A stretch of 64,000 nucleotides of DNA from positions 19,101-83,100 of the forward strand of contig CAZXTE010000001.1 of NCBI GenBank assembly GCA_964643545.1, read 5' to 3'. Source of the stretch: an uncultured Candidatus Saccharibacteria bacterium. GTDB taxonomy: Bacteria > Patescibacteriota > Saccharimonadia > Saccharimonadales > AWTP1-31. The translations under genes and the position numbers were made by a program. Below the pieces are notes generated by a model. That model did not search any database. It was not told the DNA's origin and saw nothing but the letters and a program-made list of their open reading frames with translations. Below, piece by piece: positions 1,011-22,744 of the stretch (positions are counted from its first letter, which is position 1; every line of letters begins with the position of its first letter).

Positions 1011-1870
1011 AAGGCATAGTACTAGCCGGCGGGTCGGGCACACGACTCTACCCAATCACCCAGGGAGTCAGCAAGCAGCTCATACCCATCTTCGACAAAC
1101 CAATGATCTACTACCCGCTCACTACCCTCATCAATGCAGGAATCCGAGAGATACTCATTATTTCAACGCCCCAGGACCTGCCAAGATTTGAACAACTGCT
1201 TGGAGACGGCTCACGTATCGGGTGTAGCTTTACATATAAAGTACAGGAGACGCCACGTGGGCTTGCGGATGCATACATCGTCGGTGCTGATTTTATAGGG
1301 ACTGATGACGTAGCCATGGTGCTTGGAGACAACATATTCTTCGGTAGCGATTTCGACAAAAAGGTTAAGTCGGCGACCAAAGACCTAGATGGTGGAGTTA
1401 TTTTTGGCCAACAAGTTGCCGATCCCGAACGTTATGGAATCGTAGAATTCGACAAAGAAAACAAGGTTGTTTCGATAGAAGAGAAGCCAACGGAACCCAA
1501 GTCAAACTATGCCATCCCAGGATTATACTTTTTCGATAATGACGTTGTTGAGATTGCCAAGCACGTACAACCCAGCAATCGGGGTGAAATAGAGATTACA
1601 GAAATTCATAACGCTTACCTAAAACAAGGTAAATTAAAAGTAAACTTGTTGGACCGTGGTACTGCCTGGCTCGATACAGGAACATTCAAAAGCCTGAACC
1701 AGGCATCACAGTTTGTGCAGGTCATAGAAGAACGCCAAGGCATTAAGATCGGTTGCATAGAAGAGGCAGCCTACCAGCAAGGCTTCATAGACCGTACCCA
1801 GCTTGAAGAACTCGGCAATGAGCTCCTCAAGAGTGGATATGGCAAATACTTATTAGCGTGTCTTGTATAG
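1007..1870 (+). CDS. rfbA: glucose-1-phosphate thymidylyltransferase
   Basis: MKGIVLAGGSGTRLYPIT... is the canonical RmlA N-terminus. The ORF track shows an upstream in-frame extension from 962, but the conserved start is the ATG at 1007 overlapping the rfbD stop. Confidence 0.9.
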   Translation: MKGIVLAGGSGTRLYPITQGVSKQLIPIFDKPMIYYPLTTLINAGIREILIISTPQDLPRFEQLLGDGSRIGCSFTYKVQETPRGLADAYIVGADFIGTDDVAMVLGDNIFFGSDFDKKVKSATKDLDGGVIFGQQVADPERYGIVEFDKENKVVSIEEKPTEPKSNYAIPGLYFFDNDVVEIAKHVQPSNRGEIEITEIHNAYLKQGKLKVNLLDRGTAWLDTGTFKSLNQASQFVQVIEERQGIKIGCIEEAAYQQGFIDRTQLEELGNELLKSGYGKYLLACLV

Positions 1871-2300
1871 CATGGTTAAACTTAAAAACCTGATAACCTT
1901 TCTATACAATCATCATCTTATACGTTATTTATTTGTTGGAGGCACAACCTTCTTCATAGACTTCGGGCTTTTAGTTTTGCTACACGGCAAACTCAATATT
2001 GGTTTAGCAATTGCCGCTTCTACTTCTTACTGGGTATCAATTCTGTACAATTTTAATCTCAACCGAAACTGGACTTTTAGTGCGGCCGAAAGCAAAAAAC
2101 TCCACCAACATATTCTTCCCTACTCTATTCTCTTGTGTTTCAATTATCTCTTCACTGTACTTTTTCTGAGTTTGATTACGAGAGTCATTCATTATCAAGT
2201 GGCTAAAGTTATTGCAGTCGTCGTCCAAGTTGCCTGGACATATCCTATCTATAAATATGTCATATTCGGAACTTCGTCCGACAAAACTAACCCAGCTTAA
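1863..2300 (+). CDS. GtrA-family small polytopic membrane protein (polyprenol-P-sugar flippase-like)
   Basis: 145 aa with four hydrophobic segments and the motifs FVGGTTFFIDFGLL and YNFNLNRNWTF, which are typical of the GtrA family. Confidence 0.75.
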   Translation: MYSMVKLKNLITFLYNHHLIRYLFVGGTTFFIDFGLLVLLHGKLNIGLAIAASTSYWVSILYNFNLNRNWTFSAAESKKLHQHILPYSILLCFNYLFTVLFLSLITRVIHYQVAKVIAVVVQVAWTYPIYKYVIFGTSSDKTNPA

Positions 2301-3243
2301 GAGAATTCCGAAAGTACTCTATGGTTTTATCTAAGCCTTCATCTAGCTCAATGGTCGGCTCCCAATGAAGCCTTCTTTTAGCTAATTCTATAACGGGTTT
2401 TCTCTGAAGTGGGTCGTCACCTGGAAGGGGCATATACACCATTTTTGAGTCACTACCCACCTTTTTTAGAACTTTTTCCGCTAGCTCTAACATAGTGAAC
2501 TCGGCTGGATTGCCAAGATTTATTGGTGTCACTTCTTCAGACTCAATCAACTTTACGATCCCAGCAACAAGATCATCAACGTAGCAGAAGCTTCGAGTTT
2601 GAGTGCCATCACCATAGACAGTAATAGGCTCTCCTCTTAGGGACTGCACGATAAAGTTTGATACTACTCTCCCGTCGTTTGCATCCATACGTGGGCCATA
2701 CGTATTAAAGAATCTGGCAATGCACGCTGATACCTCTGGGTGCTTTTTGGTATAAGAGTATATGAGGGCTTCGGCATACCGCTTAGACTCGTCGTACATG
2801 GCACGTGGGCCATAACAGTTAACGCTGCCTTTATAGGTCTCCGGTTGTGGGTGTACCTCAGGATCACCATAAACTTCGCTTGTACTTGCATGGAAGAAAC
2901 GTGCCTTATTTTTTTTCGCCAGATCTAGCAGCCTGAGCGTACCTTCAGACCCAACCCTTAGTGTTTCGATGGCAAGTCTTTGGTAATGTGGTGGGCTTGC
3001 GGGTGAAGCCATATTAAGAATAATGTCGTAAGATCTGTCGGTGACACTGTCTGGCAATTCTGACACAATGTCTGCCTCGATAAACGTAAATTGCTTGTTA
3101 TCTATAAGGTGCGTTACATTTTTCTTAGTACCCGTTGAAAGGTTATCCAAGCAGATTACGGAGTCTCCCTTGCCAATAAAGTAGTCGCAAAGATGTGATC
3201 CAAGAAACCCAGCACCACCCGCGATTAAAACCGACCTAGACAT
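2287..3243 (-). CDS. UDP-glucuronate decarboxylase (UDP-xylose synthase-like short-chain dehydrogenase/reductase)
   Basis: GGAGFLGSHLCD Rossmann motif, a YxxxK catalytic motif (YDESKRYAE) and strong resemblance to the UXS/ArnA-decarboxylase family. The start is taken at MSRSVLIAGG (3243), whereas the track extends to 3288 into ugd. Confidence 0.8.
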   Translation of the reverse strand: MSRSVLIAGGAGFLGSHLCDYFIGKGDSVICLDNLSTGTKKNVTHLIDNKQFTFIEADIVSELPDSVTDRSYDIILNMASPASPPHYQRLAIETLRVGSEGTLRLLDLAKKNKARFFHASTSEVYGDPEVHPQPETYKGSVNCYGPRAMYDESKRYAEALIYSYTKKHPEVSACIARFFNTYGPRMDANDGRVVSNFIVQSLRGEPITVYGDGTQTRSFCYVDDLVAGIVKLIESEEVTPINLGNPAEFTMLELAEKVLKKVGSDSKMVYMPLPGDDPLQRKPVIELAKRRLHWEPTIELDEGLDKTIEYFRNSLKLG

Positions 3244-4561
3244 ATGGGTCCACCAACCGCCTACCAATACTTTGGTAGTAAATTCCATGTTCTTCCATCG
3301 TTACTAAATCATATAGGTTCCTGCCATCAAAAACGACGGGGGCTTTAAGAAGCTCTTTGATCCTATTAAAGTCAGGGCTAAAAAACTCTTTCCAGTTAGT
3401 TGCAATGATCAGTGCATCAGCCCCATCAAGCACTTCGTACTCATCCTCGCCATAGCTAAGCCTTGGGTTGTCTGCCATCGCCTTCTTTACGTTTCCCATT
3501 GCTTGTGGGTCAAAAGCAACGACATTAGCACCCTGGCTCGTCAGTGATTCAATTATGGCAAGTGCTGGTGACTCACGTATATCGTCCGTATTGTCCTTAA
3601 AAGCAAGACCCCACAATGCAAATGTCTTACCCTCAACATTGCCCTCAAAATACTCCATAACTTTTTCTGGAACAACTAGTTTCTGGCGATCATTTGCCCC
3701 CATAACAGCCTCTAGGATACTAAAATCAAAACCACAATCTTCTGCTGTCTTGCTTAATGCCAAGACATCCTTTGGGAAACAGCTGCCACCGTAGCCTGGG
3801 CCTGCGTAAAGAAATTGATCACCTATCCGACTATCGGTACCCATCCCTGCCCGCACCATATCGACATCTGCACCAAGCAATGAACACATACCAGCAATCT
3901 GATTTATAAAACTAATCTTTGTTGCCAAGAAAGCATTCGATGCATACTTAATCATTTCTGCAGATGCTTCATCGGTTACGATAAGACTTTCTGGCTTCCT
4001 TCTGACAAATGGAGCATAAAGTTCTTTCATGACCCTGATCGCTCTGTCAGATTTACTACCTATAACCACTCTTTCAGGTGCAAGAAAGTCTGCAACTGCC
4101 TGCCCTTCTCTCAAGAACTCTGGGTTAGAGACTACATCAAAGTCGACTTTGGCGTTAACGGCAATTGCTTGCCTAACCTTTTCCGCAGTTCCCACAGGCA
4201 CTGTACTCTTGTCTACAATTACCGAGTAGCCCGCAAGCTTCTGCCCGATGTTGTCTGCAACGCCTAGAATATACGACAAGTCTGCGGAGCCATCTTCATC
4301 AGAAGGTGTTGGAAGTGCTAAGAAGATTGCTGCAGCGCCAAGAGCCTCTTCCAGATCGGTTGTAAAAGTTAAACGGCCTTCTTTGACGTTACGCTGAAAT
4401 ATATCGCCCAATCCTGGCTCAAAAATTGGCACTTCTCCAGCCTGCATTCTATGGACTTTTTCTCTATCAATATCTACACAGGTGACTTCGTTGCCCATCT
4501 CAGCGAAACAGGTACCCGTCACCAAACCAACGTATCCGGTTCCTACAACAGCAACTTTCAT
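3236..4561 (-). CDS. ugd: UDP-glucose 6-dehydrogenase
   Basis: MKVAVVGTGYVGLVTG NAD-binding N-terminus, a catalytic GGSCFPKD cysteine motif, and full UDPGDH length (441 aa). Confidence 0.9.
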   Translation of the reverse strand: MKVAVVGTGYVGLVTGTCFAEMGNEVTCVDIDREKVHRMQAGEVPIFEPGLGDIFQRNVKEGRLTFTTDLEEALGAAAIFLALPTPSDEDGSADLSYILGVADNIGQKLAGYSVIVDKSTVPVGTAEKVRQAIAVNAKVDFDVVSNPEFLREGQAVADFLAPERVVIGSKSDRAIRVMKELYAPFVRRKPESLIVTDEASAEMIKYASNAFLATKISFINQIAGMCSLLGADVDMVRAGMGTDSRIGDQFLYAGPGYGGSCFPKDVLALSKTAEDCGFDFSILEAVMGANDRQKLVVPEKVMEYFEGNVEGKTFALWGLAFKDNTDDIRESPALAIIESLTSQGANVVAFDPQAMGNVKKAMADNPRLSYGEDEYEVLDGADALIIATNWKEFFSPDFNRIKELLKAPVVFDGRNLYDLVTMEEHGIYYQSIGRRLVDPYV

Positions 4562-4712
4562 ATGTTACCAACATTTATACCAAAGATAGTGGCGGTTATA
4601 AAGATGTAAACGATGAATGTTTGAATTCTACAACAACGCCATAGCACTAGTTACAATTCTGTTTTGTGGGGCACATTATGTTAGGATAAATGTACAATTA
4701 AACTTATCCGCG

Positions 4713-5441
4713 ATGGCTAAAACAGTAAAACTTTCAATAATTATTCCTTGTTTCAACGAAAAGGAGACAATCTTAACAATACTTCAAGAGATTGAGGACG
4801 TTCATCTAGGCTCTACTAAAAAAGAGATCATCATTATCGATGATGCCTCAACTGATGGTACACGAGAAATATTAACTCGTGTAGCTAGCAAAAACAAAAA
4901 CATAAAACTTCATTTTCAAAGTGTCAACCAAGGAAAAGGGGCTGCTTTGAAAAAAGGACTCCTATCTAGCACTGGGGATGTTGTGATCATCCAAGATGCA
5001 GATCTCGAATATGACCCCCAGGAATATGTACGCTTGCTCTACCCCATAGAGAGAGGCCACGCCGACGTAGTATACGGCTCACGATTTATTGGGGGTGAAC
5101 CACACAGAATTATTTATTTCCGTAATCAAGTTGCCAATAAGTTCTTAACCTGGCTATCGAATATTTTTACGGGTCTAAATCTAACGGACATGGAGACTTG
5201 TTACAAAATGATAGATGGTGAACTTGCGCGTATGCTCGCAAAAGACTTGAAGTCACAAAGATTCGGGTTTGAACCTGAAATTACTGCTCGCATTGCTAAA
5301 AATGGAGCTCGCGTCTATGAGATCGGCATCAGTTACTATGGGCGCAGTAAAGAGGAGGGCAAGAAGATTGGTTTTCGTGATGGCTTTAAAGCTATCTGGG
5401 AGATTGTTTATTTTAACCTGAGCGTACGCAAAAAACGATAA
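4713..5441 (+). CDS. GT2 polyprenol-phosphate sugar transferase (GtrB/ArnC/DPM1-like)
   Basis: [33 protein letters not shown] and a C-terminal membrane-anchor region. The start is placed at the ATG at 4713 ([12 protein letters not shown]). Confidence 0.8.
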
Positions 5442-7675
5442 ATATACTTTTTCCCCAAGGCCTGTGCTTCTCCAAGATTAAGATAGCCGCCAATCGTTAA
5501 CAATAGACCGGCGGCAAAAAGCCCATAACTTATATTCACATACGGTGGGCTGTACGAAAAATAGGTCTTTGACTTTCCCGCTGGCACAGCGACTGCCTGA
5601 AAGATATCTTTCTCTGTTTGGATGGGCCTACTAATATCGTTTACTTTTACTCGCCAACCCGGAAAAGAAAGCTCGCGTCTTATTATGGTCGTCTCTTTTG
5701 GGCAGTCTGCTTCTACAACATCCCTAGATGTATATGTTAATTTGCAATTTGCAATGCTTTCAAAATAGCCTTTCGAGTTTGGTAGTTCAAAAATCTCAAC
5801 AGTTTCGTCGCGGTGAACAAGTTTTAGCCCAAAACTATTACTAAACTTTTCACTAACCTGACCCCGATCTGTGACTAGATATTTAACGCTCAGATTCTCA
5901 AACTCTTTGATATTCCTTCCAAACTCTTCCAAAGCACTTGGCCCCAATGGATCAACACGTGAATAGCCCGTAAAGACTAGCGCGTTAGCGTTTCGATCTA
6001 ATTTATCTGGTATATATTCTGCCCAGTTCTTGGGTACAGGTAAGTTATTCACGTTGATTGACGCTATCTCATAATATGAACCGTAGTTCGGCGCAATTGG
6101 GTGAAGTGTATAGAATCGACTAACCCCTATGTTTTTTTGCAAAAAACTAACGGGCTTCGTGTTTACTTCTGGGATATTTGGCAACGACAGAAATGGGATC
6201 ATAAACAGTACAGCCGAATCAATCAATAATATGAAACCTATCGATTTACTACGCCATTCTTTTTTCAAGAAACAGGCAACAGCAATGCCCACAATCGTCA
6301 TTCCCCACACCACCGACAATACAGCCCAGGAATGATGAGACGAATAATCACCTAGCTGCCGAACTAGATTTCGCGCATAAAGTGCCAAGGAAGCCAAAAA
6401 AAATACAGCAAAGCCAGTTGCTCCGATTATTCTTTTCTTAGTAATCTCTGCTTTTTTGATTGCCTCTAGCCCAAACATGGCTAGAATAATTAAAGCCAGG
6501 CTTAGTGCAGGTATAGAATATCTGTAAAAAGCTATTAACTTCATTCCGGGCAGGACATTAACCATATACTCAACTGGCTTAAATCCGTATATTTTCAAAA
6601 TTATAACCAGCGAGAATGTAGAAAGGTAAAGTTTGTGAGCCAATCGTCTTCTGGAAAATAAACCAAGGAGTGCGGATGTAATAAGAGGCATGGAGATATA
6701 CCCCCCCACATTTGACCAAAATAGAAATATAGCAAGTGCCTTCCCTGTGTCAGAAAAACCAAAAATTGGGCCATAAATATACGGCATAAATAGAGCCGGC
6801 AACGTCTTTATATTGAGTGATACATGGGCATACCCACTGTCCGAGTGGCCACCAGTAGTTGCGTGAGGCAAATACCCCAGGAATGGAACAAGAATAGGAG
6901 CTGACAATAGCAAGCCCAGAATACTAGCAAATAACAGTTTGTAGATAAAAGGCTTCCAGGCACTCCTCTTTATTTGAATCATACGAACAACACCCCAGCC
7001 ATATGCAAATAGTGCGTTAATGTAAGCTGTTTCTGGGAAACCGGAGTACAACGAAAGACTCAGCGCTAACGCAATAACCAGCCATCCACCCCGTCGTTTT
7101 TTCTCAGCTCGGATAAGTGCTACTTCGATGCCCAGTAGCAGCATAGGTAAAAAAGCTATTGGATTAAAAGCAGCATTGGTTAGCCAGGCAAATGCCCCAT
7201 TCAATGCAAAAAGAATTCCACCAATTATAGCTATACTCGAGCTGAGTTTTATTTTTCTCAGTAATAGATAAGTAGTAAACCCAGCAATAAGTTGCAAAAA
7301 AAAGTGCATAATTATGAATCCATTTCCAAAGTACAGCAATAGTACAAGGGGGAAGAACGCTGCTGACTGCATACCCCCAGCCAGTGGTGAACCAATGCCC
7401 TCATAATGGTTCCAGTAGGGTACATCCCCCTGCAGCCAACTCTGGGCCGCCCTGCGGCCAAGCGCTTGAGAAGTAAAACCGTCGTTTGGGTCAATAGTGC
7501 TCTGGCCCCCAACAGGTCCGGGGGTAATACTTGTTGCCAACCCTGAGCGTTGTAGAATGGGGTTCCTGCTTTTGCCCATTATCAGTGGGGTCAAGTTTAT
7601 TAGAAGGATAGCAAGGAATACTACCAAGAATGGCTTTGTGTGTTCTGATTGAAATAATCGCTTAATTCTTGTCAT
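5408..7675 (-). CDS. large polytopic GT-C-like membrane glycosyltransferase (GtrC/YfhO/ArnT-like candidate)
   Basis: 756 aa with at least 12 predicted TM segments in the N-terminal two thirds and a C-terminal soluble domain. It is convergent with the GtrB-like gene and overlaps its 3' end. The start is placed at MTRIKRLF (7675). Confidence 0.55.
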
Positions 7676-7820
7676 ATTTTCCCCAATATTATGCCACAGG
7701 TACGTCAACATACATTCATTATGAGTCACTTTTGTGCAACGGTGTCGGTATTCGGATATGAAGCTAGTTACGCTATAATGGTCTATGTTATAAAAATGGA
7801 ATGGAGAGGTTTTTTATAAG

Positions 7821-8867
7821 ATGAAGGTTTTAATAACCGGTTCTGCTGGTCTGATTGGCTCAGAAGCTGCAAAATTCTTTGCTGAAAAGGGTTTTGAGGT
7901 TGTGGGCATTGACAACAATATGCGTAGTTACTTCTTTGGTGAGGAAGCAAGTACCGAGTGGAATCGAAAGAAAATTGAAACGCAGCTCAATAAAGCCTAC
8001 ACGCACTATAACGTCGATATCCGTGATAACGATGCGGTGGGCAAGATTTTTAAGAAACATAAATTTGATCTAATTATTCATACCGCCGCTCAACCCTCTC
8101 ACGACTGGGCAGCACGCGAGCCGTTTACTGATTTTACGGTTAACGCTAACGGCACACTTGTAATGTTAGAGAACATGCGGCAATTCTGTCCTGAAGCAGT
8201 GTTTATTTTTACCTCTACCAATAAAGTATACGGGGACACACCCAACAACCTTCCTTTGATCGAACTAGATAAGCGCTGGGAACTCCCCGAAGATCACAAG
8301 TTTTACAAGGGCATAGACGAAACAATGAGTATTGACGATTGTAAGCACTCAATTTTTGGTGCATCTAAAGTTGCGGCTGACATCATGGTTCAGGAGTATG
8401 GGAAATACTTTGGCTTCAAGACTGCAGTCTTCCGTGGTGGCTGCCTAACCGGACCATCCCATTCTGGCGCAGAGCTGCATGGCTTTTTAGCTTATCTAAT
8501 TAAGTGTATTGCGAGTGGCAAAAAGTACACGATCTTCGGCTACAAAGGCAAGCAAGTACGTGACAATATTCACTCTCACGATCTCGTAAATGCCTTTTAC
8601 CATGTGTATAAAAAACCTCGTTCTGGCGAAGTCTACAATATGGGCGGTAGTCGTAACTCCAACATATCCATGCTAGAAGCCATCGAAAAAATAGAGAAGT
8701 TATTGGGGAAAAAGGCAAACTACGAACTTTCAGACGAAAATCGTATCGGTGATCATATCTGGTATATATCAGACGTCTCTAAATTCCAAAAACACTACCC
8801 GAACTGGAAGTTCGAATACGATACAGATGCCATCCTAAAAGAGATGTGCGCAGCGGTGCGAGTCTAA
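7821..8867 (+). CDS. NAD-dependent sugar epimerase/dehydratase (CDP-paratose-2-epimerase-like)
   Basis: [10 protein letters not shown] Rossmann motif, STNKVYGD and YxxxK (FGASKVAAD) motifs. Confidence 0.7.
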
Positions 8868-9934
8868 TGCATTATAAAAACATACTCATTACAGGTGGCG
8901 CTGGGTTTGTAGGCTCTAATTTAGCGCTAAAATTAAAAAGCGACTACCCCGAAGTGCATATTATTGTACTCGACAACTTAAAGCGTCGCGGTTCAGAACT
9001 ATCATTGGCGCGCTTAAAAAGCGCTGGCATCGATTTCGTTCATGGCGACATCCGTAACCGAGAAGATTTAGTGGTTGATAGTATTGATCTACTAATCGAA
9101 TGCTCTGCCGAACCGTCTGTTATGGCCGGGATCGATTCTTCGCCAGACTATTTAATGAACACTAACTTGGTTGGAACGCTCAATTGTTTAGAATTAGCAC
9201 GCCACCATAACGCAGCTAGTTTATTCCTATCTACCAGCCGCGTGTACCCCATAAGCCATATTAATAACCTGCAGTTCAAAGAGTCGAGCACACGATTCGA
9301 AATTCTCGATTCTCAAAAAATTCTTGGCGCTTCATCAAAGGGCATTGCTGAAAATTTTCCGCTCGACAGACCACGCTCTCTCTATGGAACAACAAAACTG
9401 GCTTCTGAGATGGTCGTGGCAGAATATATCGATACGTACGGCATGAAAGCAATTGTTAATCGCTGTGGTGTCATTACTGGTCCGTGGCAAATGGGCAAGA
9501 TCGACCAAGGTGTCTTCGTCCTGTGGGTTGCTAAACACTACTTCAAGCAATCGCTGTCCTATATAGGCTATGGTGGTGAAGGAAAACAGGTCCGTGACTT
9601 TATCCATATTGATGATTTGTATACGGCCATAGACCACCAACTCGCGCACTTCGATGATTACAATGCTGGAGTCTTTAATATTGGTGGTGGTGCAGCCAAT
9701 AGCGTGTCTCTCAAGGAGCTGACTACCTTGTGTCAGGAAATTACAGGAAATACGATCAATATTGCTTCCATCAAAGAAGACCGCCCAGCTGATCTGCGGT
9801 TCTTCATTACAGACAGCACGAAATTTCTGGAGAAATCAGGTTTATCGTGGAACAAAGATGCGCGTCAAACGGTTACTGATATTTACAAATGGATTCGCGA
9901 TAATGAAGCGGCCCTAAGACCAATCTTGGCCTAG
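8867..9934 (+). CDS. NAD-dependent sugar epimerase/dehydratase, paralog of the preceding gene
   Basis: ITGGAGFVGSNL Rossmann motif and a YGTTKLASE catalytic motif. The start is the ATG at 8867 (MHYKNIL), overlapping the upstream stop (TAATG). Confidence 0.7.
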   Translation: MHYKNILITGGAGFVGSNLALKLKSDYPEVHIIVLDNLKRRGSELSLARLKSAGIDFVHGDIRNREDLVVDSIDLLIECSAEPSVMAGIDSSPDYLMNTNLVGTLNCLELARHHNAASLFLSTSRVYPISHINNLQFKESSTRFEILDSQKILGASSKGIAENFPLDRPRSLYGTTKLASEMVVAEYIDTYGMKAIVNRCGVITGPWQMGKIDQGVFVLWVAKHYFKQSLSYIGYGGEGKQVRDFIHIDDLYTAIDHQLAHFDDYNAGVFNIGGGAANSVSLKELTTLCQEITGNTINIASIKEDRPADLRFFITDSTKFLEKSGLSWNKDARQTVTDIYKWIRDNEAALRPILA

Positions 9935-9937
9935 CGC

Positions 9938-10681
9938 ATGAAGTTATCGATTGTCATACCGGCACACAACGAAGAGGGCTCTATTGCAACCACCGTCAAC
10001 GCTTTTCATACGGAACTTACCAAGGCAAAAATCCCGCACGAAATACTTGTGGTTAACGACAACAGCAAAGATAAAACTGAAAAAATATTAAAAAACATCT
10101 GCAAAAAAATACCCGAGGTGCGCTACGTAAACAACGTTCCGCCCAATGGTTTTGGGTTTGCTGTGCGAAAAGGGCTGGAATCATACACCGGTGACTGCGT
10201 GGCGCTGGTCATGGCTGACATGTCCGACCGCCCTATGGATCTCGTTGCTTATTATCGAAAAATGATCGAGGGCAACTACGACGCCGTTTTTGGCTCCCGT
10301 TTTATAAAAGGTGGCAAGACTATTAACTACCCACGTACAAAGCTCCTTATGAATCGCTTGACCAACAATATAATAAAGATCCTGTTCGGCATTCGCTTCA
10401 ATGATGTCACCAATGCCTTTAAGCTCTACAAGAGAGAAACCATAGAAGGCGTAAAGCCATTCCTAAGTCATCACTTTAACCTAACGGTAGAACTCCCCCT
10501 CAAAGCGATTGTTCGTGGATACTCGTACGGTGTGGTGCCTAATTATTGGACCAACCGCACAACCGGCGAGGCAAAGCTTAAACTGAAGGAGATGGGAAGT
10601 CGATATTTCTATATAATTCTATATTGCTTGATAGAGAAGTGGTTATCACGTGGTGATTATAAAAAACCTAACTCACCATAG
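9938..10681 (+). CDS. GT2 polyprenol-phosphate glycosyltransferase (DPM1/GtrB-like), second copy
   Basis: LSIVIPAHNEEGSI, LVVNDNSKDKT and DxD-like MADMSD motifs, with a C-terminal hydrophobic tail. Confidence 0.75.
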   Translation: MKLSIVIPAHNEEGSIATTVNAFHTELTKAKIPHEILVVNDNSKDKTEKILKNICKKIPEVRYVNNVPPNGFGFAVRKGLESYTGDCVALVMADMSDRPMDLVAYYRKMIEGNYDAVFGSRFIKGGKTINYPRTKLLMNRLTNNIIKILFGIRFNDVTNAFKLYKRETIEGVKPFLSHHFNLTVELPLKAIVRGYSYGVVPNYWTNRTTGEAKLKLKEMGSRYFYIILYCLIEKWLSRGDYKKPNSP

Positions 10682-10777
10682 TTTCTGAGTTTATCAACAA
10701 TTCGTTGTATTTCCTTCTATATGCCAGAACGCTTTTTTAAGCTACTATACCTATTAAGATAATTATGGAGATGTTGC

Positions 10778-11443
10778 TTGATGAAAGATTACGTACTTTC
10801 CATTTACGCTGATCGCTTTGATAAGGACGAGCAAAAACGTAAGGTAATGTGGCAGGTTCTCTGCAATGACTACTTTCAAAAGTTCATTGGCAAGAAAGAT
10901 GTCGTTCTTGACCTTGCTGCAGGATACTGTGAGTTTATTAATAATATAAAGTGCGGGAAGAAAATTGCTGTCGACCTAAATATGAAAACCAAGCAGAAGG
11001 CTGCAAAAAATGTAACAGTATACCGAGCGCTCAGTACCGCCCTGCCTAAAAAACTAACCGGTTCGGTGGATGTAGTATTTACCAGTAACTTCTTCGAGCA
11101 TTTAGATAGCAAAAATGAACTAATTGATACTCTAAAAGAGATACACCGAGTACTGAAACCAGGTGGTAAACTTATGGTTTTACAGCCCAATATTCGACTC
11201 GTCGGTAATCAGTATTGGGACTACGTTGACCACACATTGCCATTAACTGAAAAGAGTCTTGAAGAAGCTTTTCACTTAACTGATTTTGAACAATGGTTTC
11301 GTAAAGTAAGGTTTTTGCCATTTACAGCAAACTCACGTATGCCGGCGTATCCATTTCTAATTCGTCTGTATCTTCGACTTCCATTGGCTCAGTTTATTAT
11401 GGGTAAACAAACTTTTGTTATAGCTAAAAAAGTTAAGGCTTAG
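10778..11443 (+). CDS. class I SAM-dependent methyltransferase
   Basis: VLDLAAGYCEF (motif I) and VLKPGGKLMV (post-II motif). Confidence 0.7.
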   Translation: MMKDYVLSIYADRFDKDEQKRKVMWQVLCNDYFQKFIGKKDVVLDLAAGYCEFINNIKCGKKIAVDLNMKTKQKAAKNVTVYRALSTALPKKLTGSVDVVFTSNFFEHLDSKNELIDTLKEIHRVLKPGGKLMVLQPNIRLVGNQYWDYVDHTLPLTEKSLEEAFHLTDFEQWFRKVRFLPFTANSRMPAYPFLIRLYLRLPLAQFIMGKQTFVIAKKVKA

Positions 11444-12681
11444 TGCTTATTTAGACAAGTCAACCAATCACTACTCGGATTTACTTCGAGACAAACTCGC
11501 TCGCCAGAGTGAGCATTGTTGAATTTCTGAACTGAATTTGAAAAGTTTGTATACGATTTTTGTGGATAAGAGAAATCACTCGGTATTCCCAATAGAACCA
11601 TGCACAAGAGCAAGCCAACTGCTAATGACCTTGCATACTTATTAGCATACGAAAAGAGGAATAGTATTGCCGAAAAGAGGCCAATCATTGGAAGCCAAAA
11701 ATAACGATTTCCCCCTCCACTAACCATCGACGTCCACTGGGGTACGGTGTTGCTAGCCTGGGGTTTTATGAGCGCTACAAAGAAAATCAGCCAAGTGAAG
11801 ATTATGATCATCTTATACTTATACGGTGCTTTGATGAGAACAAAGATTAATAATGCTAATGTAACCGCACCAAGCACCGCAAACCAACCTTGATTGGCTA
11901 AAGCGTATTTGTTAATAGTCTCCATGCCTACCAGCAGTCCGCCAGTAATTCTACTACCTATTATAGCCAGAAACTTGACTGGGCTCGCGCCCAATCCCTG
12001 CGTAAATCTGGCTTCGGGCTTAGACAGAAGATACACAATTGTCTGCACGACCGACGTAACAGAATATACAGCCAGGTAGGGAAAGCCGACTTTCCCCCTC
12101 TTCCACAACCAGAAAGCGATTGGCAGGACTATGATGGAAAAAGGACCGGTTAGACCAGATATAAAAAGTACGCTGGTGTCAAAGACTTGCCAAAGTTTCG
12201 ACTCAGTTTTGCCAGAGATTAAAATCATGAACACGATCAACGCTAGGTGCCAGTTCATGTTGGTCAGGTTGGCGTTAACCTCAAAACTATTGGGCATCAG
12301 CAGATAGAAGGCTGCAAATAGTGACGAGTTTCGGGTTGAGCCAGTAAGCTTTTTGAATCGGTCGGTAAACAACAAAACAACAGGTAAAATCTGGACTACT
12401 GTTGCCGATAACACAAAAAATAATGGTGCTAGCTTCAACGGCAAGACCATGGATGTCGATGCGACCAGACGCATGCCGACTTGTAGGCTGCTGGCGTAGG
12501 GTTTAAAGATTGACAGAAGAATACCGTCGTTATAGGCCTGGCCGAACCACTTTATACCATCCTCTCCCCAGAATTGGGCATGCCTAAAAACGCTTGGATC
12601 GCGGAGGTAGACAAGCAAAAAACTGCCCAAAAATACTCCCAGAAGGAGCAGTATCTTGTTCTTAGTTAAATAATTCCGCAT
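11440..12681 (-). CDS. polytopic membrane protein, paralog A (uncharacterized family, possible GT-C)
   Basis: 413 aa with about 10-12 TM segments. It shares N-terminal (AQFWGEDG.../AQFWAEDF...) and C-terminal (NPSSDWLTCLNKH / NPDEAWKTCLKKN) signatures with the ORF at 16561..17853. Confidence 0.6.
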   Translation of the reverse strand: MRNYLTKNKILLLLGVFLGSFLLVYLRDPSVFRHAQFWGEDGIKWFGQAYNDGILLSIFKPYASSLQVGMRLVASTSMVLPLKLAPLFFVLSATVVQILPVVLLFTDRFKKLTGSTRNSSLFAAFYLLMPNSFEVNANLTNMNWHLALIVFMILISGKTESKLWQVFDTSVLFISGLTGPFSIIVLPIAFWLWKRGKVGFPYLAVYSVTSVVQTIVYLLSKPEARFTQGLGASPVKFLAIIGSRITGGLLVGMETINKYALANQGWFAVLGAVTLALLIFVLIKAPYKYKMIIIFTWLIFFVALIKPQASNTVPQWTSMVSGGGNRYFWLPMIGLFSAILFLFSYANKYARSLAVGLLLCMVLLGIPSDFSYPQKSYTNFSNSVQKFNNAHSGERVCLEVNPSSDWLTCLNKH

Positions 12682-12706: not shown

Positions 12707-14329
12707 GTGCTTACAATAGATTGGTGGCCGCTACTAAGTGTAGCGCTTTATATTTCTTCATTTTTTAGTCTAAGTCTTTTTTTTGGCCTCAAAGCCCATC
12801 AGAAAAAACTCATTCCCGATAACTTTTTGTACATGGGTGGCCTAGCCATTTGTCTAGTCATCTGCTATTCTCAGTTTTACATTTTTGCCATTAGCCCAAA
12901 GCTTGGTCACGTCACGACTATTCTATTTATTCTCGCAGGCTTAGCAGTTTTGCCATTCCTGTTACGAACGCTTCTGATTCAAAAAACGATTTGGCAAATA
13001 ACTAAGAAGTACTTCTTTGTACCTTTTTTGATAATAGTTCTCCTCACTTTTCTGTATTCGTATTTCTTATTCGGCTGCACCACCAGCAAATACACTATTG
13101 ACCAATGGGGTGAAGTTCAAAACCCCGCCTTTTGTCACATATCGAAACTACCTATAGATAATGCTCTGCCCTACATCTACAGCGAGAAGGTTAAGAACAA
13201 TGATGCTAAATCATTGGTGATTGATTGGAGCATAGCCGACCGGCCACCGCTGCAAATTGCTACAACTTTGCCAATTTCTGATTTAGCCAAAACCACTGGC
13301 AGACCACAGCGTTACGCTATGTATTACGTCTTTTCCATCACATTACAGCTAAGCTGGATTGCGGTCATTTGGGGCATTTTAACAAAGCTTCTCCAGCGAA
13401 AATTACATGTCTGGGGTTCTATGTTGGCCCTGTCTGCTACGGGGTTCTTATACATTAACTCCGTTTTTGTGTGGCCAAAACTGATCTCAGCCAGTTTATT
13501 CGTATTTGGCGCCTTCATACTTTTTGAAACTAGCACCAAGAGACGAAACTTATTTACTTACAAGTATCTTACCCTAGCGGCAATCTCGTTCGCGCTGGCA
13601 TTACTCTCGCATACGGGCGTGTTGTTTACGTTAATAGTCCTTGCGCCGCTGGTTGCTTTTGACCTTTGGCGTAGTCAAAAAATAGACCAGAAGTTATTGA
13701 AGAGTCTCATAGTACCGACTGCTGCTGCCCTCATCTTGCTAGTACCATGGCAAATCACCAAAAATCATTTAATTTCTCATGATCGACTCATCAAGTGGCA
13801 CTTCGCAGGTGTAATCTCTGCGGAGGACCAGCGGGGAACTCTCAAAACTATAGTTGACGAGTACAAGAAGTTGCCCCTCGCAGCCTGGGCACACAATAAA
13901 CAGAAAAATATTGAAGCACTCTTTACGGGGGGCGTAGGCAACAGTTGCGACTCTGCAATTCGCAGGACCCTTGACGATTGCCACGTAGCCGTATGGAGAG
14001 ATCGAGAGTTCTTCAGCTCGTTCTATTCTTTAGGATTGTTTTCCATTGGATTCCCCGTAATTATCTGGCTTGGCCTTAAGAAGAAGTTGGACAGGCTTGA
14101 TATTATGCTACTTTTACTTACAGTACTGTACTTTATAGTTTGGGTGCTGTTGATGTTTATCCCGGGAGCAACCGTGATACATCAAGGGTCGTATGCTTCT
14201 GCTCTGTTTCTATTTATTTTGCTCATCAAGAATCTATCGCTAATGCCCGACGCAGCGTTTATAGCTTTTGTCGTTCTACAGCTCACCATATTTGGGTTAG
14301 CCTGGCTTCGACCTTTCGGCTTTTTGTAA
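12707..14329 (+). CDS. polytopic membrane protein (GT-C / PMT-like candidate)
   Basis: 540 aa with 12 or more hydrophobic segments. Family assignment is weak. Confidence 0.55.
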   Translation: MLTIDWWPLLSVALYISSFFSLSLFFGLKAHQKKLIPDNFLYMGGLAICLVICYSQFYIFAISPKLGHVTTILFILAGLAVLPFLLRTLLIQKTIWQITKKYFFVPFLIIVLLTFLYSYFLFGCTTSKYTIDQWGEVQNPAFCHISKLPIDNALPYIYSEKVKNNDAKSLVIDWSIADRPPLQIATTLPISDLAKTTGRPQRYAMYYVFSITLQLSWIAVIWGILTKLLQRKLHVWGSMLALSATGFLYINSVFVWPKLISASLFVFGAFILFETSTKRRNLFTYKYLTLAAISFALALLSHTGVLFTLIVLAPLVAFDLWRSQKIDQKLLKSLIVPTAAALILLVPWQITKNHLISHDRLIKWHFAGVISAEDQRGTLKTIVDEYKKLPLAAWAHNKQKNIEALFTGGVGNSCDSAIRRTLDDCHVAVWRDREFFSSFYSLGLFSIGFPVIIWLGLKKKLDRLDIMLLLLTVLYFIVWVLLMFIPGATVIHQGSYASALFLFILLIKNLSLMPDAAFIAFVVLQLTIFGLAWLRPFGFL

Positions 14330-16560: not shown

Positions 16561-17853
16561 TTAGTTCTTCTTCAGGCACGTTTTCCACGCTTCGTCGGGA
16601 TTTATATCAAAGCAATATTGTTGCCCAGGACGTAAGGTCGAGAACTCGTTAGCTTGGCCTCTGAAGTTAAACTTCTTCAACTCTTTTACTCTAAAGTAGA
16701 ATGGGAAAAATAGCACGTATAAAGCCACCAAAGCTGAGGCAATCTTGCCCATGTTATTCCTGGTAAGTGCCGCAAAGTAGACCAGTATCAGCAGCCAGCA
16801 GAAGATTGGGATGAAAAAGTATCGTGCGCCGAAGGAATTTAGTTGTAACATATCCCAGAACTGCACAATCGGAACAGTTTGAGCTCGTACGAATGTCGAA
16901 GCATAAATAAGAGACCCGAATAATATCACTGCTCGCATATAGATGTTGGCCTTGATGAAGGCGTAGATCGTCATAATAATAGCGAACATACCCAACATAA
17001 ACATCTGGGGCGACCCTGCTATCTCTTTGGTGATTATTTTCTCGCCTGCGACTGGCAAAGCAAAGAACCTCATACCGGTAATCTTAATCGGTTTACTATA
17101 GTTATTTATTAGTTCTCTTTTCTGAGATACCAGACTGGCAGTTCTTTGTTGGGGGGCCTGTACGTAGACAGCTATCTGAATGAGCGCACAAGCAACTATA
17201 GCAGCAGCCTTAATCCAGTGCATTCTATTTTTGCTCTTTTGAGCAGTAATTAAGTATGCAGCCGTTAGTGCTAGGAAGGGAGCAAACGGCCCACTCAACC
17301 CAGACACAATAAGCACAGTAATATCAAATACCAACCATTTCTTCTGCGTTTTTGGGCCCCTAACTAGTACCAAAATTGCGGCAGCGGCCAAGAACCAAAT
17401 AGTATTTGTAAAATTTCCATAAATCTCAGCAATGCCCGGAATAAGTAGGTATAGAAAAGTGAATGTCATCTTTGATCGCACACTGAATTTTTTTATAAGG
17501 GTGCTATCCGACCAGAATATAAACAATGGTAGGACCATGACCAGAATGGCCACTAAATTTGCCGCCGCTGGGGCGAATCTTAGGGGTACCAACAGCAGCG
17601 GTAGAGCTACCAATCGAGGGAAGAAGGGCAAGATTCCAGAATAAGTCTTGAAGATACTGTAGCCGCCACGCATATAGGCATCTCTATAAAATACGGCGAA
17701 GTCTTCTGCCCAAAACTGAGCATTAAAAAGCAGCTCCGGCCTTCGTAATACGATTACGCCAACGCCAATCAAACACACTACTACCGCTTTTTTCATATCT
17801 GAAAGTACGACAAATTTACGCCAAATGTTAGCTGCCAGCGACTTTATTTCCAT
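16561..17853 (-). CDS. polytopic membrane protein, paralog B (same family as 11440..12681)
   Basis: 430 aa. It shares N- and C-terminal signatures with paralog A. Confidence 0.6.
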   Translation of the reverse strand: MEIKSLAANIWRKFVVLSDMKKAVVVCLIGVGVIVLRRPELLFNAQFWAEDFAVFYRDAYMRGGYSIFKTYSGILPFFPRLVALPLLLVPLRFAPAAANLVAILVMVLPLFIFWSDSTLIKKFSVRSKMTFTFLYLLIPGIAEIYGNFTNTIWFLAAAAILVLVRGPKTQKKWLVFDITVLIVSGLSGPFAPFLALTAAYLITAQKSKNRMHWIKAAAIVACALIQIAVYVQAPQQRTASLVSQKRELINNYSKPIKITGMRFFALPVAGEKIITKEIAGSPQMFMLGMFAIIMTIYAFIKANIYMRAVILFGSLIYASTFVRAQTVPIVQFWDMLQLNSFGARYFFIPIFCWLLILVYFAALTRNNMGKIASALVALYVLFFPFYFRVKELKKFNFRGQANEFSTLRPGQQYCFDINPDEAWKTCLKKN

Positions 17854-17857: not shown

Positions 17858-19756
17858 CTATTTTAATCTAGCATTAGCGATGTCACGACGAAACTCTGGG
17901 TGATAAAACGGGTCATCTTTAATGAGAGTGCCCCACTTATTTAACATAAGCTTTATCTCTTTATCGAACAGTTCTAGGTCGCGTTGCTTAGAACCAGGCT
18001 GGCCAATAGAGACTGACTCGTGGTGAAACAGATTTACGTGCGGCAGGTACACATTCCTATAACCTTTATCGTATAGCTTTAAACAGAAGTCAACATCGTT
18101 AAAGGCAATCTTAAAGATGGGGTCGAATCCATTAACTTTATTGAACTTGGAGACACCAACCATCACACAGGCTGCAGTTACAGCTGTGAAGTTCCGCGTG
18201 CCACCGACATATAAATTTTGAATGGGGCTCTGGGGTGGTTTATCTATATAAGCCGGGAAGAAATGCCCGGCTATGCCTGGGGTGCCATCCTGGCCACCAA
18301 CACCAAGGATAATGCCTGCATGCTGCAGCCTCTTGTCTGGATAATATAGTTTGCAGCCCACTGCACCAACGTCATCTTGTTGGCTGTAGGCAACCATCCC
18401 TTGGATCCAATCCGGAGATATGACCTCAGTGTCATTGTTGAGGAATAGTAGCTGTGAACCACTTGAGTTATCCGCTCCTAGATTGCAGGCTGCGGCAAAG
18501 TTGAACGGCTTTTCCCACTTCACCACCCTCAGGCCTTTTCCGAGCGATTTGTACCTTTTGTACAGATCCCACACTTTGTCGTCTGTACTGCCCGTGTCTA
18601 CTATTACTACTTCGTAATTATTATAGGTTGTTTTTTCTTTAATTGACCTTAAGCAACGCTCAATATAACCAAATTGATCTTTGGTTGGGATAACGATACT
18701 TACTAACGGATTATCACTTTCATACGCAACCCTCCACATAGAGTATGGAATTTGCCAAGAAATCTCGGCTTTCATGTTACGAGCCTTGACATCATCTTGT
18801 AAGGCTTTCTTCTGATTAACATAGGCGTACTCTTTGGAAGCAGGATTTTCAGCAGTCGAATTTTCAGTTTTCCGCCAACTGTAGAGTACCGTGGGTATGT
18901 GCTGAATTTTGTCAGTCTGGCGAGTAACTCGAAGGAATAGGTCCCAGTCTTGAGCACCTTCGTAACCAGGTCGAAAACCGCCAACTTTCTCAACTAACGA
19001 ACGTCTAATGACCGCAAAGTGAGTTATGTAATTGATTGATCGTAAAAATTCAAAACTCCAATCTGGTTTAAAGAAGGCATCTTCATGCACCTTGCTTTGT
19101 GAATCTATCTTGTCTTCGTCGCTATAAACAAGGTCGGCTTTTTTTTCATTAATAACAGTCGCTGCGTGGAATAAAGCATTTGGCCATAGTACATCATCGT
19201 GATCGAGCAGAGCTATAAATTCACCACTTGCTAGCTTTAATGCTGAGTTTGTGGCATGACAGATATGACCGTTTTCTTGGCGTATGGTGTACTTTATTCT
19301 GGGTTCTTTTTGGGCGTAAGCCTGAATCGCTCCAATTACTTTTTTATCGGTCGAGGCATCATCGGCAATGCAAAGCTCCCAGTTATCGTAAGTCTGGGCT
19401 ATAACGGACTCAATGCACTCTTTTAGGTGCTGAATGTTAGGATTGTAGGTTGGCACTAATACACTGATTAGAGGGCGAGATTTGAAATTCTTTTGGTTTT
19501 TCACTTGCTGCTTCAAAATACCACCCGTTGGGTAATTCTTTTTAAACCACTGTCTGTATTCTTTGTCGATTTGAATCTTTGTGTGAGCCGCTAGGGTTAA
19601 TGAATCTATGCGCGAAATGAGTTTTTTTGCACCCGGTAGACGCCGGGTATAACGATTAATAAAGATGTGTTTGCCGAAGATCTTGATGTGCAGAATTCGG
19701 ATTATAATTGGATATATCCCCTGCTTTACTTTCTTTACTATAGACGTCATTTTCAC
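17858..19756 (-). CDS. tandem double GT2 glycosyltransferase (ABC-pathway polymerising GT candidate)
   Basis: Two GT2 cores: ISVLVPTYNP...CIADDASTD and VSIVIPTKDQ...VIVDTGSTDD, with a DxD (DHDD). Confidence 0.8.
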   Translation of the reverse strand: MKMTSIVKKVKQGIYPIIIRILHIKIFGKHIFINRYTRRLPGAKKLISRIDSLTLAAHTKIQIDKEYRQWFKKNYPTGGILKQQVKNQKNFKSRPLISVLVPTYNPNIQHLKECIESVIAQTYDNWELCIADDASTDKKVIGAIQAYAQKEPRIKYTIRQENGHICHATNSALKLASGEFIALLDHDDVLWPNALFHAATVINEKKADLVYSDEDKIDSQSKVHEDAFFKPDWSFEFLRSINYITHFAVIRRSLVEKVGGFRPGYEGAQDWDLFLRVTRQTDKIQHIPTVLYSWRKTENSTAENPASKEYAYVNQKKALQDDVKARNMKAEISWQIPYSMWRVAYESDNPLVSIVIPTKDQFGYIERCLRSIKEKTTYNNYEVVIVDTGSTDDKVWDLYKRYKSLGKGLRVVKWEKPFNFAAACNLGADNSSGSQLLFLNNDTEVISPDWIQGMVAYSQQDDVGAVGCKLYYPDKRLQHAGIILGVGGQDGTPGIAGHFFPAYIDKPPQSPIQNLYVGGTRNFTAVTAACVMVGVSKFNKVNGFDPIFKIAFNDVDFCLKLYDKGYRNVYLPHVNLFHHESVSIGQPGSKQRDLELFDKEIKLMLNKWGTLIKDDPFYHPEFRRDIANARLK

Positions 19757-21944: not shown

Positions 21945-22744
21945 TACAGATCCTCGGCAAAGTTTTTTGCTTCTCTCTTAAAGTACAGGACGCCGAATAA
22001 TAATACAGTGAGTGTTATAGAATATGGTACCAGTCGCGACCATTGACTACCGTAGACATGACTAATTGTTAACGAACTATGCGAAACTGCAGCGTACCTC
22101 GCGTCCTGAACGGCAGTAGCGATTGGATTCACCATCAAGATTTTCTGATACAAGGGCTTCGTTATGATCGAGAGTGGATATAGTATGGGCGTTAGATAGA
22201 ACAACCCTTGAAGCGAAACCTCCCATAGGTGCGTAACGTCCCGATACTTTACAAAGGCCGTCGCAAGAATAAGAGATACTCCCAAGGCAAACAAGTAGAG
22301 CTGAACCAGCACTAATGGCAACAGCAAGATACTTCGCATAATATCAACGTGATTGAATAGCAAGAAAATAAACACAATAATAAGATTAAGCGCTAAGTTA
22401 ATCAGTGCGGTAACGCTACTCGAAAGAACTATTATCCATCTTGGGATACGGATCTTGCGAATTAAGTCACCTCTGGAAACAATACTACTAAGACTTATAC
22501 TTGTCATTTCTGCAAAAAAGTTCCATAGTACTATTCCTAATAATAGGTATATGGGGTAGTGTTCTATGCCCTTACCTATCTTTAAGAATTTTACAAAGAC
22601 GACATAGAGTATCAGGAACAGCAACAACGGGCGCAGAAGCGACCATGCGTAGCCGAGAACAGAGCCTTGATAGCGAAGCTTGAAGTCGGTTCTAACCAGT
22701 TCACCAAGAAGAGTCCTGTTCTGTTTTGAAAATATATGTTTCAT
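21944..22744 (-). CDS. wzm: ABC-2 type polysaccharide exporter permease
   Basis: 266 aa with six TM segments. It is adjacent to and translationally coupled with wzt. Confidence 0.85.
   Translation of the reverse strand: MKHIFSKQNRTLLGELVRTDFKLRYQGSVLGYAWSLLRPLLLFLILYVVFVKFLKIGKGIEHYPIYLLLGIVLWNFFAEMTSISLSSIVSRGDLIRKIRIPRWIIVLSSSVTALINLALNLIIVFIFLLFNHVDIMRSILLLPLVLVQLYLFALGVSLILATAFVKYRDVTHLWEVSLQGLFYLTPILYPLSIITKPLYQKILMVNPIATAVQDARYAAVSHSSLTISHVYGSQWSRLVPYSITLTVLLFGVLYFKREAKNFAEDL

Follow-up and report, generated by a model that had tools for sequence, protein, structure and literature searches.

Composition of the glycosylation gene cluster

We analyzed a 64-kb stretch of DNA (the window) from an uncultured Candidatus Saccharibacteria bacterium and focused on the gene cluster at positions 1863–7675. 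The open reading frame (ORF) listing and translation of this region give five protein genes. A GtrA-family small membrane protein is encoded on the plus strand at 1872–2300 (142 aa from the ATG; a TTG start at 1863 is also possible, giving 142–145 aa). The minus strand carries uxs (2287–3243; 318 aa), which encodes a UDP-glucuronate decarboxylase/UDP-xylose synthase (UXS), and ugd (3236–4561; 441 aa), which encodes a UDP-glucose 6-dehydrogenase. A short family 2 glycosyltransferase (GT2), here called GT2a, follows on the plus strand (4713–5441, within an ORF of 4617–5441; 242 aa), and a YfhO-family protein resembling GT-C glycosyltransferases lies on the minus strand (5408–7675, within an ORF of 5408–7729; 755 aa from the ATG at 7675). 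We propose that these genes, which lie within the main locus for cell-envelope polysaccharide, encode a three-component system for extracytoplasmic glycosylation and that its sugar probably derives from UDP-glucuronate (UDP-GlcA), a reading to which we assign a probability of about 0.6.

A preliminary description of this DNA had noted a glycosylation trio interleaved with genes for UDP-GlcA and UDP-xylose synthesis, and all five genes are indeed present, with uxs and ugd between gtrA and GT2a. That description took ugd and the decarboxylase gene to be convergent, but they lie in tandem on the minus strand, where the ugd stop and the uxs start overlap by 8 nt (3236–3243); because of this overlap the two are probably co-transcribed. 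The pair is convergent to gtrA alone, the 3′ ends of gtrA and uxs overlapping by 14 nt (2287–2300), and is divergent from GT2a. The gene coordinates leave a gap of 151 bp between ugd and GT2a (4562–4712), which is the presumed promoter region. Promoter and terminator consensus scans across 1–11.5 kb did not rise above shuffled expectation, so transcription units are assigned here from gene overlaps alone. The 34-nt convergent overlap reported between GT2a and yfhO is exact by coordinates (5408–5441).

Related loci, referred to by L numbers, were gathered by GT2a scans of GTDB genomes and metagenomes, with the addition of contigs from identity look-ups. They comprise 35 non-redundant Saccharibacteria loci with a GT2a at 72% identity or more, about 25 of which, including the window, have enough flanking sequence to judge. 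In the usual arrangement GtrA, Ugd and a short-chain dehydrogenase/reductase (SDR) follow one another on the strand opposite GT2a and point away from it, and GT2a is itself followed by the gene for a large polytopic protein. Nearly all of the 35 loci place GT2a between GtrA and such a membrane protein, which belongs to the YfhO family in four loci (the window, L001, L002 and L080) and is DUF6311-like in the others. In the four YfhO loci, yfhO stands 3′ end to 3′ end with GT2a and overlaps it in three (by 31 nt in L001 and 37 nt in L080, with no overlap in L002), and there is no evidence that the overlap reflects more than genome compaction. Since the same gene set recurs across related Saccharibacteria loci, the gene association is not a chance one. 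The trio is split by ugd and uxs in the window, as had been claimed, but the split is a local rearrangement of the usual order.

GT2a belongs by homology to the polyprenyl-phosphate sugar synthase class

GT2a matches PF00535 (Glycos_transf_2) with a score of 111 bits. Its true start is placed at M33 (position 4713) because more than 120 homologues at 78–83% identity are 238–256 aa long, and the 32-residue N-terminal extension of the ORF is, by this comparison of lengths, spurious. The protein has DD and DAD motifs, and D43, D44, D95 and D97 are invariant in the alignment. Its best PDB relatives are the catalytic domain of Pyrococcus furiosus dolichyl-phosphate-mannose synthase (DPMS), ArnC and GtrB, and its best NCBIfam relatives are AglJ, PgfS, ArnC and PpgS, all matched far below their equivalog cut-offs. 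GT2a is the most conserved protein of the locus, with ~80% identity across species-level genomes.

We found no transmembrane (TM) helix in the 242-aa GT2a and no hydrophobic segment at the TM threshold. The C-terminal TM hairpin of GtrB/CsbB-type enzymes is absent, and the more than 120 close homologues are equally short. The protein does contain amphipathic segments at residues 138–156 and 221–237. An AlphaFold2 (AF2) model built from a low-diversity alignment of 25 sequences reached a pLDDT of 57, with a disordered C-terminal half. The comparisons thus place GT2a among the polyprenyl/dolichyl-phosphate sugar synthases, as a DPM1/PpgS-like rather than a GtrB-like member. The earlier assignment to a GtrB-like polyprenol-phosphate-sugar synthase fits at the level of class (DPMS, ArnC and GtrB being relatives) but does not extend to the TM architecture of GtrB.

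An exhaustive search over 1.8 billion cluster representatives, followed by Pfam annotation, identified homologues in the 55–57% identity range that are fused to the other components of such systems. Two carry a GtrA_DPMS_TM domain (P0248, 373 aa; P0250, 566 aa, which also bears a methyltransferase), and a third, P0251 (688 aa), carries a PMT_2 GT-C domain. Such fused proteins connect the three modules functionally. The preliminary description had stated that a GT2 without a membrane-associated C-terminus would refute the proposed trio. GT2a has no TM helix in this position, but the model survives, because fusions to a GtrA-like TM domain are known within the family and because TM-less precedents exist (PpgS/Rv3632).

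A presumed GtrA-family partner with two paralogue types

The window GtrA protein matches PF04138 (GtrA_DPMS_TM) at 64 bits against a cut-off of 26 (E 1.5e-17) and has four hydrophobic segments. Its sole PDB match is the GtrA-like TM domain of P. furiosus DPMS (residues 255–373), found with an E-value of 0.0045 from the single sequence and 4e-11 with a 21-sequence profile. DPMS is a shared relative, with GT2a best matching its catalytic domain and GtrA its four-helix TM domain. The DPMS TM domain has been described as GtrA-like, and crystallographic data suggest that it could flip Dol-P-Man (PMC12992685). Given the GT2a homologues that include a GtrA-like domain in the same polypeptide, GtrA probably serves as a membrane subunit of GT2a and/or as a flippase for the polyprenyl-phosphate-linked sugar.

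Just one GtrA gene is present in the 64-kb window, at a distance of 2.4 kb from GT2a. The alignment of GtrA proteins across loci separates two paralogue types. Type I is the divergent neighbour of GT2a in most loci. The window protein is type II; it is 51–53% identical to the proteins at L001:18662–19033, L002:5351–5779 and L080:12407–12835 but shares only ~19–28% identity with type I. Type II GtrA adjoins rmlA in all four YfhO-containing loci, and in the window its reading frame overlaps the rmlA 3′ end; only L001 among the four also keeps type I. The window would thus owe its split trio to descent in a lineage that has kept type II as its sole GtrA near two TM-less GT2 genes.

The YfhO-family protein has a GT-C fold

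The 755-aa YfhO protein matches PF09586 at 64.7 bits against a cut-off of 28.5, although the match covers only positions 85–450 of the 835 in the profile, and most of its homologues carry a precomputed PF09586 hit. A sequence search against the PDB gave no match, which made a fold search necessary. The AF2 model, built with 49 homologues, has a pLDDT of 93.2 and a pTM of 0.92. In a Foldseek search of the PDB the top 17 matches were all GT-C enzymes; the best was ArnT (5EZM, E 7e-8), and AftD, STT3/OST, PglB, AftA, DPY19 and PMT were also matched. A transporter identity, the alternative named in the preliminary description, was rejected: transporters appeared only at Foldseek probabilities below 0.2.

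The model comprises a polytopic N-terminal membrane domain with at least 10 predicted TM segments, a β-rich extracytoplasmic domain of ~200 aa and a C-terminal helix. GT-C enzymes place their catalytic acid in the first outer loop, between TM1 and TM2. In the window protein this loop carries the sequence TIDPND, whose Asp62 is invariant in the family alignment and is a candidate catalytic residue. With Pfam matches above gathering score and the YfhO GT-C fold, GtrA, GT2a and YfhO represent all three protein classes that make up a Gtr-type system, as the proposed periplasmic-face trio implied.

The best YfhO homologue is 57% identical, and named homologues come from Saccharimonadales and Actinomycetota, a distribution that puts the window in Saccharibacteria. 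In L082 a YfhO homologue stands beside a 320-aa GT2 and GtrA without Ugd, and some homologues elsewhere do not lie in glycan loci at all. Membership of this GT-C family therefore does not in itself imply a pentose or uronate substrate.

In most loci a polytopic protein of ~560–620 aa with a precomputed DUF6311 hit follows GT2a (for example L003:10780–12510 and L006:12522–14285), and it is followed in turn by conserved proteins of ~650 aa and ~950 aa without known function. A relaxed-threshold Pfam search with the L003 protein that carries the precomputed DUF6311 hit returned nothing. The alternation of YfhO and DUF6311-like proteins suggests that a single conserved synthase is served by transferases that can replace one another downstream of it.

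Ugd, UXS and the identity of the transferred sugar

Ugd contains all three UDPG_MGDP_dh domains (PF03721, PF00984 and PF03720) and matches TIGR03026 at 455 bits against a cut-off of 190; it is TuaD-like (NCBIfam E 3e-161). The window SDR, annotated by Pfam as Epimerase/GDP_Man_Dehyd, aligns over its full length with human UXS1 structures (4GLL/2B69, E 4e-99). The next SDR class in the PDB search is matched at ~1e-38 and ArnA at ~1e-24. It retains the catalytic STSE and YDESK (YxxxK) motifs and is, by these sequence criteria, a genuine UDP-xylose synthase. An Arn-like pathway was rejected, since no aminotransferase, formyltransferase or deformylase occurs among the proteins annotated in 0–34 kb.

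Whether Ugd, UXS and the GT2 co-occur in related genomes had been put forward as a check. The association of Ugd with GT2a is strong (23 of the ~25 informative loci), and in most Saccharibacteria loci Ugd lies within ~500 bp of GT2a, on the strand of GtrA and directly behind it. The association with UXS holds for about half: a UXS-type SDR, with 51% identity or more to that of the window, is found in 13 loci. Nine loci have a shorter, epimerase-like SDR with SSTK in place of STSE, and three (L080, L101 and L106) have neither. An independent Ugd-UXS-GT2 row occurs in L036, an Actinomycetes contig.

The epimerase-like SDR (~290 aa) takes the place of UXS after Ugd at, for example, L002:4473–5345, L009:35–925, L012:5061–6026, L013:1185–2105 and L014:527–1447. 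Its best PDB matches, at ~1e-23, are putative 4-epimerases and UXS, and it may be a UDP-GlcA 4-epimerase. GT2a does not follow the exchange: its identity is 79% among the UXS-type loci, 81% among the epimerase-type loci and 79% when the two sets are compared. Because the SDR is replaced while the neighbouring GT2 stays unchanged, lineage-specific switching of the uronate or pentose that is made is suggested. The constancy of GT2a fits three readings, namely that the donor is the shared precursor UDP-GlcA, that GT2a has relaxed specificity, or that the SDR products feed other transferases.

The preliminary description saw a hint that the sugar is of the xylose, glucuronate or arabinose type and not glucose. 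Across Saccharibacteria GT2a stays linked with Ugd and, in most cases, with an SDR that acts on UDP-GlcA, and this conserved linkage makes a UDP-GlcA-derived sugar (xylose in this genome, or GlcA itself) the likelier choice over glucose, and one that we consider probable from these gene associations. Xylose specifically is not established, given that nine loci have an epimerase-like SDR instead of UXS and three have neither while GT2a stays ~79% identical, and we would place it below an even chance; an unrelated hexose seems unlikely.

The surrounding polysaccharide locus

The cluster is preceded by genes for dTDP-rhamnose synthesis on the plus strand, rmlD (147–1010; PF04321, E 2e-61) and rmlA (ORF 962–1870; PF00483, E 1e-71), and rmlB and rmlC lie upstream in the syntenic loci L001, L002 and L080. 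The rml genes suggest a rhamnose-containing acceptor polymer. Glycan genes continue past 7675 to about 26.8 kb.

The plus-strand region 7821–11443 encodes two SDRs, a second TM-less GT2 (9938–10681; 247 aa), which shares 28% identity with GT2a, and a methyltransferase. Both SDRs are closest to CDP-tyvelose 2-epimerase (E 3e-39 and 6e-36), and the SDR-SDR-GT2 block is kept in L001 at 77–86% identity. It is possible that this region forms a second lipid-linked-sugar module, though neither a GtrA of its own nor a recognised GT-C was found beside it in the window. Three unclassified polytopic proteins are encoded nearby, with predicted TM segments numbering 11 for 12707–14329 (plus strand), 8 for 11440–12681 (minus strand) and 10 for 16561–17853 (minus strand); no Pfam or NCBIfam family was found for any of them, including with Pfam at a relaxed threshold. 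The 540-aa protein at 12707–14329 comes from a rare family, with 46 homologues, the named ones all from Saccharimonadales-type metagenome-assembled genomes, and its family has invariant LPxDN and DRPPLQ motifs. One homologue has a precomputed PMT_2 hit, an hhalign comparison of the family with the YfhO profile gave a probability of only 9–19%, and a PDB profile search came back empty. Its gene adjoins yfhO in L001 and lies ~4.5 kb upstream of yfhO in L080. This protein may be an unrecognised GT-C partner of the second GT2.

Farther along, the block at 17858–22744 encodes a double GT2 and, on the minus strand at 19753–22744, a 329-aa methyltransferase (PF08241), Wzt with a C-terminal, carbohydrate-binding Wzt_C domain (PF00005 and PF14524) and Wzm (PF01061). 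The methyltransferase/Wzt/Wzm set also occurs in L001, L003, L006 and L016, and in L004 the methyltransferase is fused to Wzt. By analogy, this organization suggests a methyl-capped, chain-length-controlled ABC-transporter polysaccharide pathway like that of Escherichia coli O9a. The presumed acceptor polysaccharide would leave the cell through this Wzm/Wzt ABC transporter. Beyond this block lie genes for another GT2, a Wzy_C protein and a GT4. In streptococci, GacI/J/L-type systems encoded in rhamnose-rich cell-wall polysaccharide loci add side-chains after export (PMC8035078, PMC9574508). The present locus, with rmlBCDA upstream in its syntenic counterparts, resembles these loci, and by this analogy a rhamnose polymer is the most likely acceptor.

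Several other features of the region deserve mention. The plus-strand segment 14368–16560 encodes two proteins of 174 and 554 aa that could be assigned to no family; both begin with a hydrophobic segment in the N-terminal part, and in relatives they are likewise found beside glycan genes. The longer one shares 50% identity with part of a 953-aa L003 protein, and its L080 counterpart has β-propeller/tectonin domains; the two window proteins may be lectin-like surface proteins. At 23819–25618 on the minus strand, a 137-aa transposase-like helix-turn-helix fragment (HTH_Tnp_1) lies beside the Wzy_C protein, a 440-aa membrane protein resembling O-antigen ligases/polymerases. Directly after the glycan locus, 28360–33251 holds an origin-region set with a khpB/jag-like gene (KH and R3H domains), yidC and rnpA on the minus strand and dnaA and dnaN on the plus strand. 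The tRNA genes at 54830–55817 and 62219–62308 are Ser-TGA, Ser-GCT, Arg-GCG and Ser-CGA, three of the four being serine isoacceptors.

Proposed mechanism and alternative explanations

A four-step route would account for these genes. By homology, Ugd oxidizes UDP-glucose to UDP-GlcA, which in this genome UXS then decarboxylates to UDP-xylose. GT2a would then dock at the inner face of the membrane, through its amphipathic helices and the GtrA-family protein, and move the sugar from the UDP donor to polyprenyl phosphate, so that GT2a and GtrA would together amount to a two-polypeptide version of the type-III DPMS, in which the same modules are fused. The GtrA-like protein and/or another factor would bring the polyprenyl-phosphate-linked sugar to the outer leaflet. 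There YfhO, whose fold is supported by the structural model, is predicted to use the invariant Asp62 to put the sugar onto an already exported polymer. The acceptor would most likely be a rhamnose-containing glycan made by the rml gene products and the cytoplasmic GT2s and exported by Wzm/Wzt.

Several observations weigh against this reading. GT2a has no TM helix, and its AF2 model (pLDDT 57) is too poor to reveal membrane-interface helices. The window GtrA is type II and not the usual type I companion of GT2a, so that their partnership is assumed. An epimerase-like SDR without the decarboxylase STSE motif adjoins Ugd in nine loci, L080 has Ugd without an SDR, and L101 and L106 have no Ugd within 6–10 kb. 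No alignment column of GT2a discriminates UXS-type from epimerase-type loci, and since GT2a does not track the SDR, the product of UXS may go to some other enzyme. Ugd/UXS linkage is also missing from the YfhO homologues of Actinomycetota (~40% identity) and of another Saccharibacterium (42%). In addition, the small genomes of Saccharibacteria cluster most of their glycan genes, which makes adjacency weaker evidence than usual.

Some of these points lead to an alternative in which the trio exists as described but carries a common hexose as its lipid-linked sugar, such as glucose from UDP-glucose, and Ugd and UXS supply the cytoplasmic GT2/GT4 polymer builders, their adjacency reflecting the compact glycan locus of a reduced genome. 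The absence of GT2a co-variation with the SDR type would be expected under this alternative, as would the loci that lack an SDR beside Ugd (L080) or Ugd nearby (L101 and L106), and several cytoplasmic glycosyltransferases of the locus could use UDP-xylose. GT2a homologues of other phyla (40–58% identity) also fit: their neighbours are conserved only within each phylum and include no Ugd, UXS or GtrA, save in L036 and, more weakly, in L026 (Ugd only). We nonetheless regard a common hexose as unlikely, because Ugd is placed within ~500 bp of GT2a in most loci, directly behind GtrA and on its strand, is kept in 23 of the ~25 informative loci despite shuffled surroundings, and appears again in the Ugd-UXS-GT2 row of L036 in another phylum.

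The remaining alternatives concern the partners and the acceptor. GT2a could be a soluble cytoplasmic GT2 that extends a lipid-PP-linked or polymer acceptor, with YfhO paired to another synthase, such as the GT2 at 9938–10681, or to none nearby. Its missing TM helix, the NCBIfam scores far under equivalog cut-offs and the presence in the window of two similar short GT2s but one GtrA are all compatible with such a role, which we still judge very improbable: the best solved or curated relatives (DPMS, ArnC, GtrB, AglJ, PpgS and PgfS) are without exception Pren-P/Dol-P sugar synthases, fusions to GtrA_DPMS_TM and to a GT-C domain occur among close homologues, and nearly all loci have GtrA on one side of GT2a and a large polytopic protein on the other, with yfhO 3′-to-3′ in four and overlapping in three. 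The system could also act as proposed on another acceptor, whether a protein (O-glycosylation as by PMT or Pgf), a polymer resembling lipoteichoic acid (LTA) or peptidoglycan. YfhO proteins glycosylate LTA in Bacillus subtilis and Listeria monocytogenes (PMC5836110, PMC7389260), the fold matches include the protein-modifying GT-Cs STT3, PglB, PMT and DPY19, and YfhO homologues elsewhere lie outside rhamnan loci. Against this, yfhO sits inside an rml/Wzm-Wzt polysaccharide locus in the window, L001, L002 and L080, and the annotated part of the window contains neither an LTA synthase nor an obvious target protein, so that we consider a different acceptor quite unlikely. Our preference thus remains with a polyprenyl-phosphate-linked, UDP-GlcA-derived sugar transferred by YfhO to a rhamnose-containing glycan.

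Implications for Saccharibacteria surfaces

Saccharibacteria are obligate episymbionts, and to our knowledge almost nothing has been established about their envelope chemistry. Our literature search found no paper linking Saccharibacteria with UDP-xylose and none naming UDP-xylose, undecaprenyl and GT-C together. The ~80% identity of GT2a and its recurrence in a cassette with GtrA, Ugd and an SDR suggest an important surface modification. A bolder proposal, which we offer as tentative and rather doubtful, is that Saccharibacteria use a lipid-linked donor new to bacteria: polyprenyl-phosphate-xylose, -glucuronate or, in lineages with the epimerase-like SDR, -galacturonate. This donor would be made by a TM-less GT2, highly conserved at ~80% identity throughout the class, with a detachable GtrA-type subunit and used by interchangeable GT-Cs (YfhO or DUF6311-like) on a rhamnose-containing polymer. 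If true, this would amount to a cassette found throughout the candidate phyla radiation (CPR) that shapes the surface shown by episymbionts to their hosts. The cassette gives the search for a lipid-linked pentose or uronate donor a definite candidate that can be tested, and GT2a/GtrA, as a natural split DPMS, should be useful for asking whether GtrA-like modules serve as anchors, activators or flippases.

Comparison with known systems

The architecture and logic of the cluster are those of known three-component systems; its one unusual trait is the company of genes for UDP-GlcA and UDP-xylose. CsbB/GtcA/YfhO and GtlA/GtlB carry out three-component glycosylation of LTA and wall teichoic acid in Bacillus and Listeria (PMC5836110, PMC7389260, PMC8035078). 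These systems and the Gtr systems of O-antigen glucosylation (GtrA/GtrB/Gtr*) contain the same three protein classes as the window, and the GT-C of CsbB/GtcA/YfhO belongs to the same Pfam family, YfhO. CsbB and GtrB, however, carry C-terminal TM helices that GT2a does not have, and the known CsbB/Gtr donors are UDP-GlcNAc, UDP-Gal and UDP-Glc, whereas the window cassette carries Ugd and UXS. The CsbB-type acceptor is teichoic acid; that of the window, in a CPR bacterium, is probably an ABC-exported rhamnose glycan.

Also comparable are Mycobacterium tuberculosis PpgS (Rv3631)/Rv3632/Rv3779, a polyprenyl-P-GalNAc route to arabinogalactan (PMC3485146), and Streptococcus pyogenes GacI/GacJ/GacL (PMC8035078), both of which combine a short GT2, a separate small membrane protein and a GT-C, as in the window. 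GacI/J/L also decorates the rhamnan of an rml/ABC-transporter locus, in line with our proposal. The resemblance of GT2a to PpgS is at family level only (E 2e-14, far below the cut-off), the PpgS and GacI donors are UDP-GalNAc or UDP-GlcNAc and so differ from the one proposed here, and GacJ is described with three TM helices, compared with four hydrophobic segments in the window GtrA.

The type-III DPMS of P. furiosus (PDB 5MLZ) matches GT2a and GtrA with its catalytic and TM domains, respectively, and fused bacterial GT2a homologues exist. In the window, GT2a (4713–5441) and GtrA (1872–2300) are separate genes, the fusions being confined to more distant homologues, and the DPMS donor is GDP-Man. 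The polar-pocket residues proposed for flipping by DPMS are reported to be absent from GtrA proteins (PMC12992685).

In its chemistry the Arn pathway (Ugd, ArnA, ArnB, ArnC, ArnD, ArnE/F and ArnT) offers a further parallel: a GT2 loads a UDP-GlcA-derived sugar onto polyprenyl phosphate, small membrane proteins flip it and a GT-C carries out the transfer. ArnC is among the best PDB matches of GT2a, and ArnT is the best fold match of YfhO. The two differ in that the window decarboxylase is a eukaryote-like UXS (E 4e-99) and not ArnA-type (~1e-24), that the proteins annotated in 0–34 kb include no counterparts of the ArnA formyltransferase, ArnB or ArnD, and that the acceptor is not lipid A. Another UDP-GlcA-derived lipid-linked donor, dodecaprenyl-P-GalA, is used by the Rhizobium RgtE/RgtA-D system. 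Arn and RgtE are thus precedents for lipid-linked donors derived from UDP-GlcA of the kind that we propose for Saccharibacteria.

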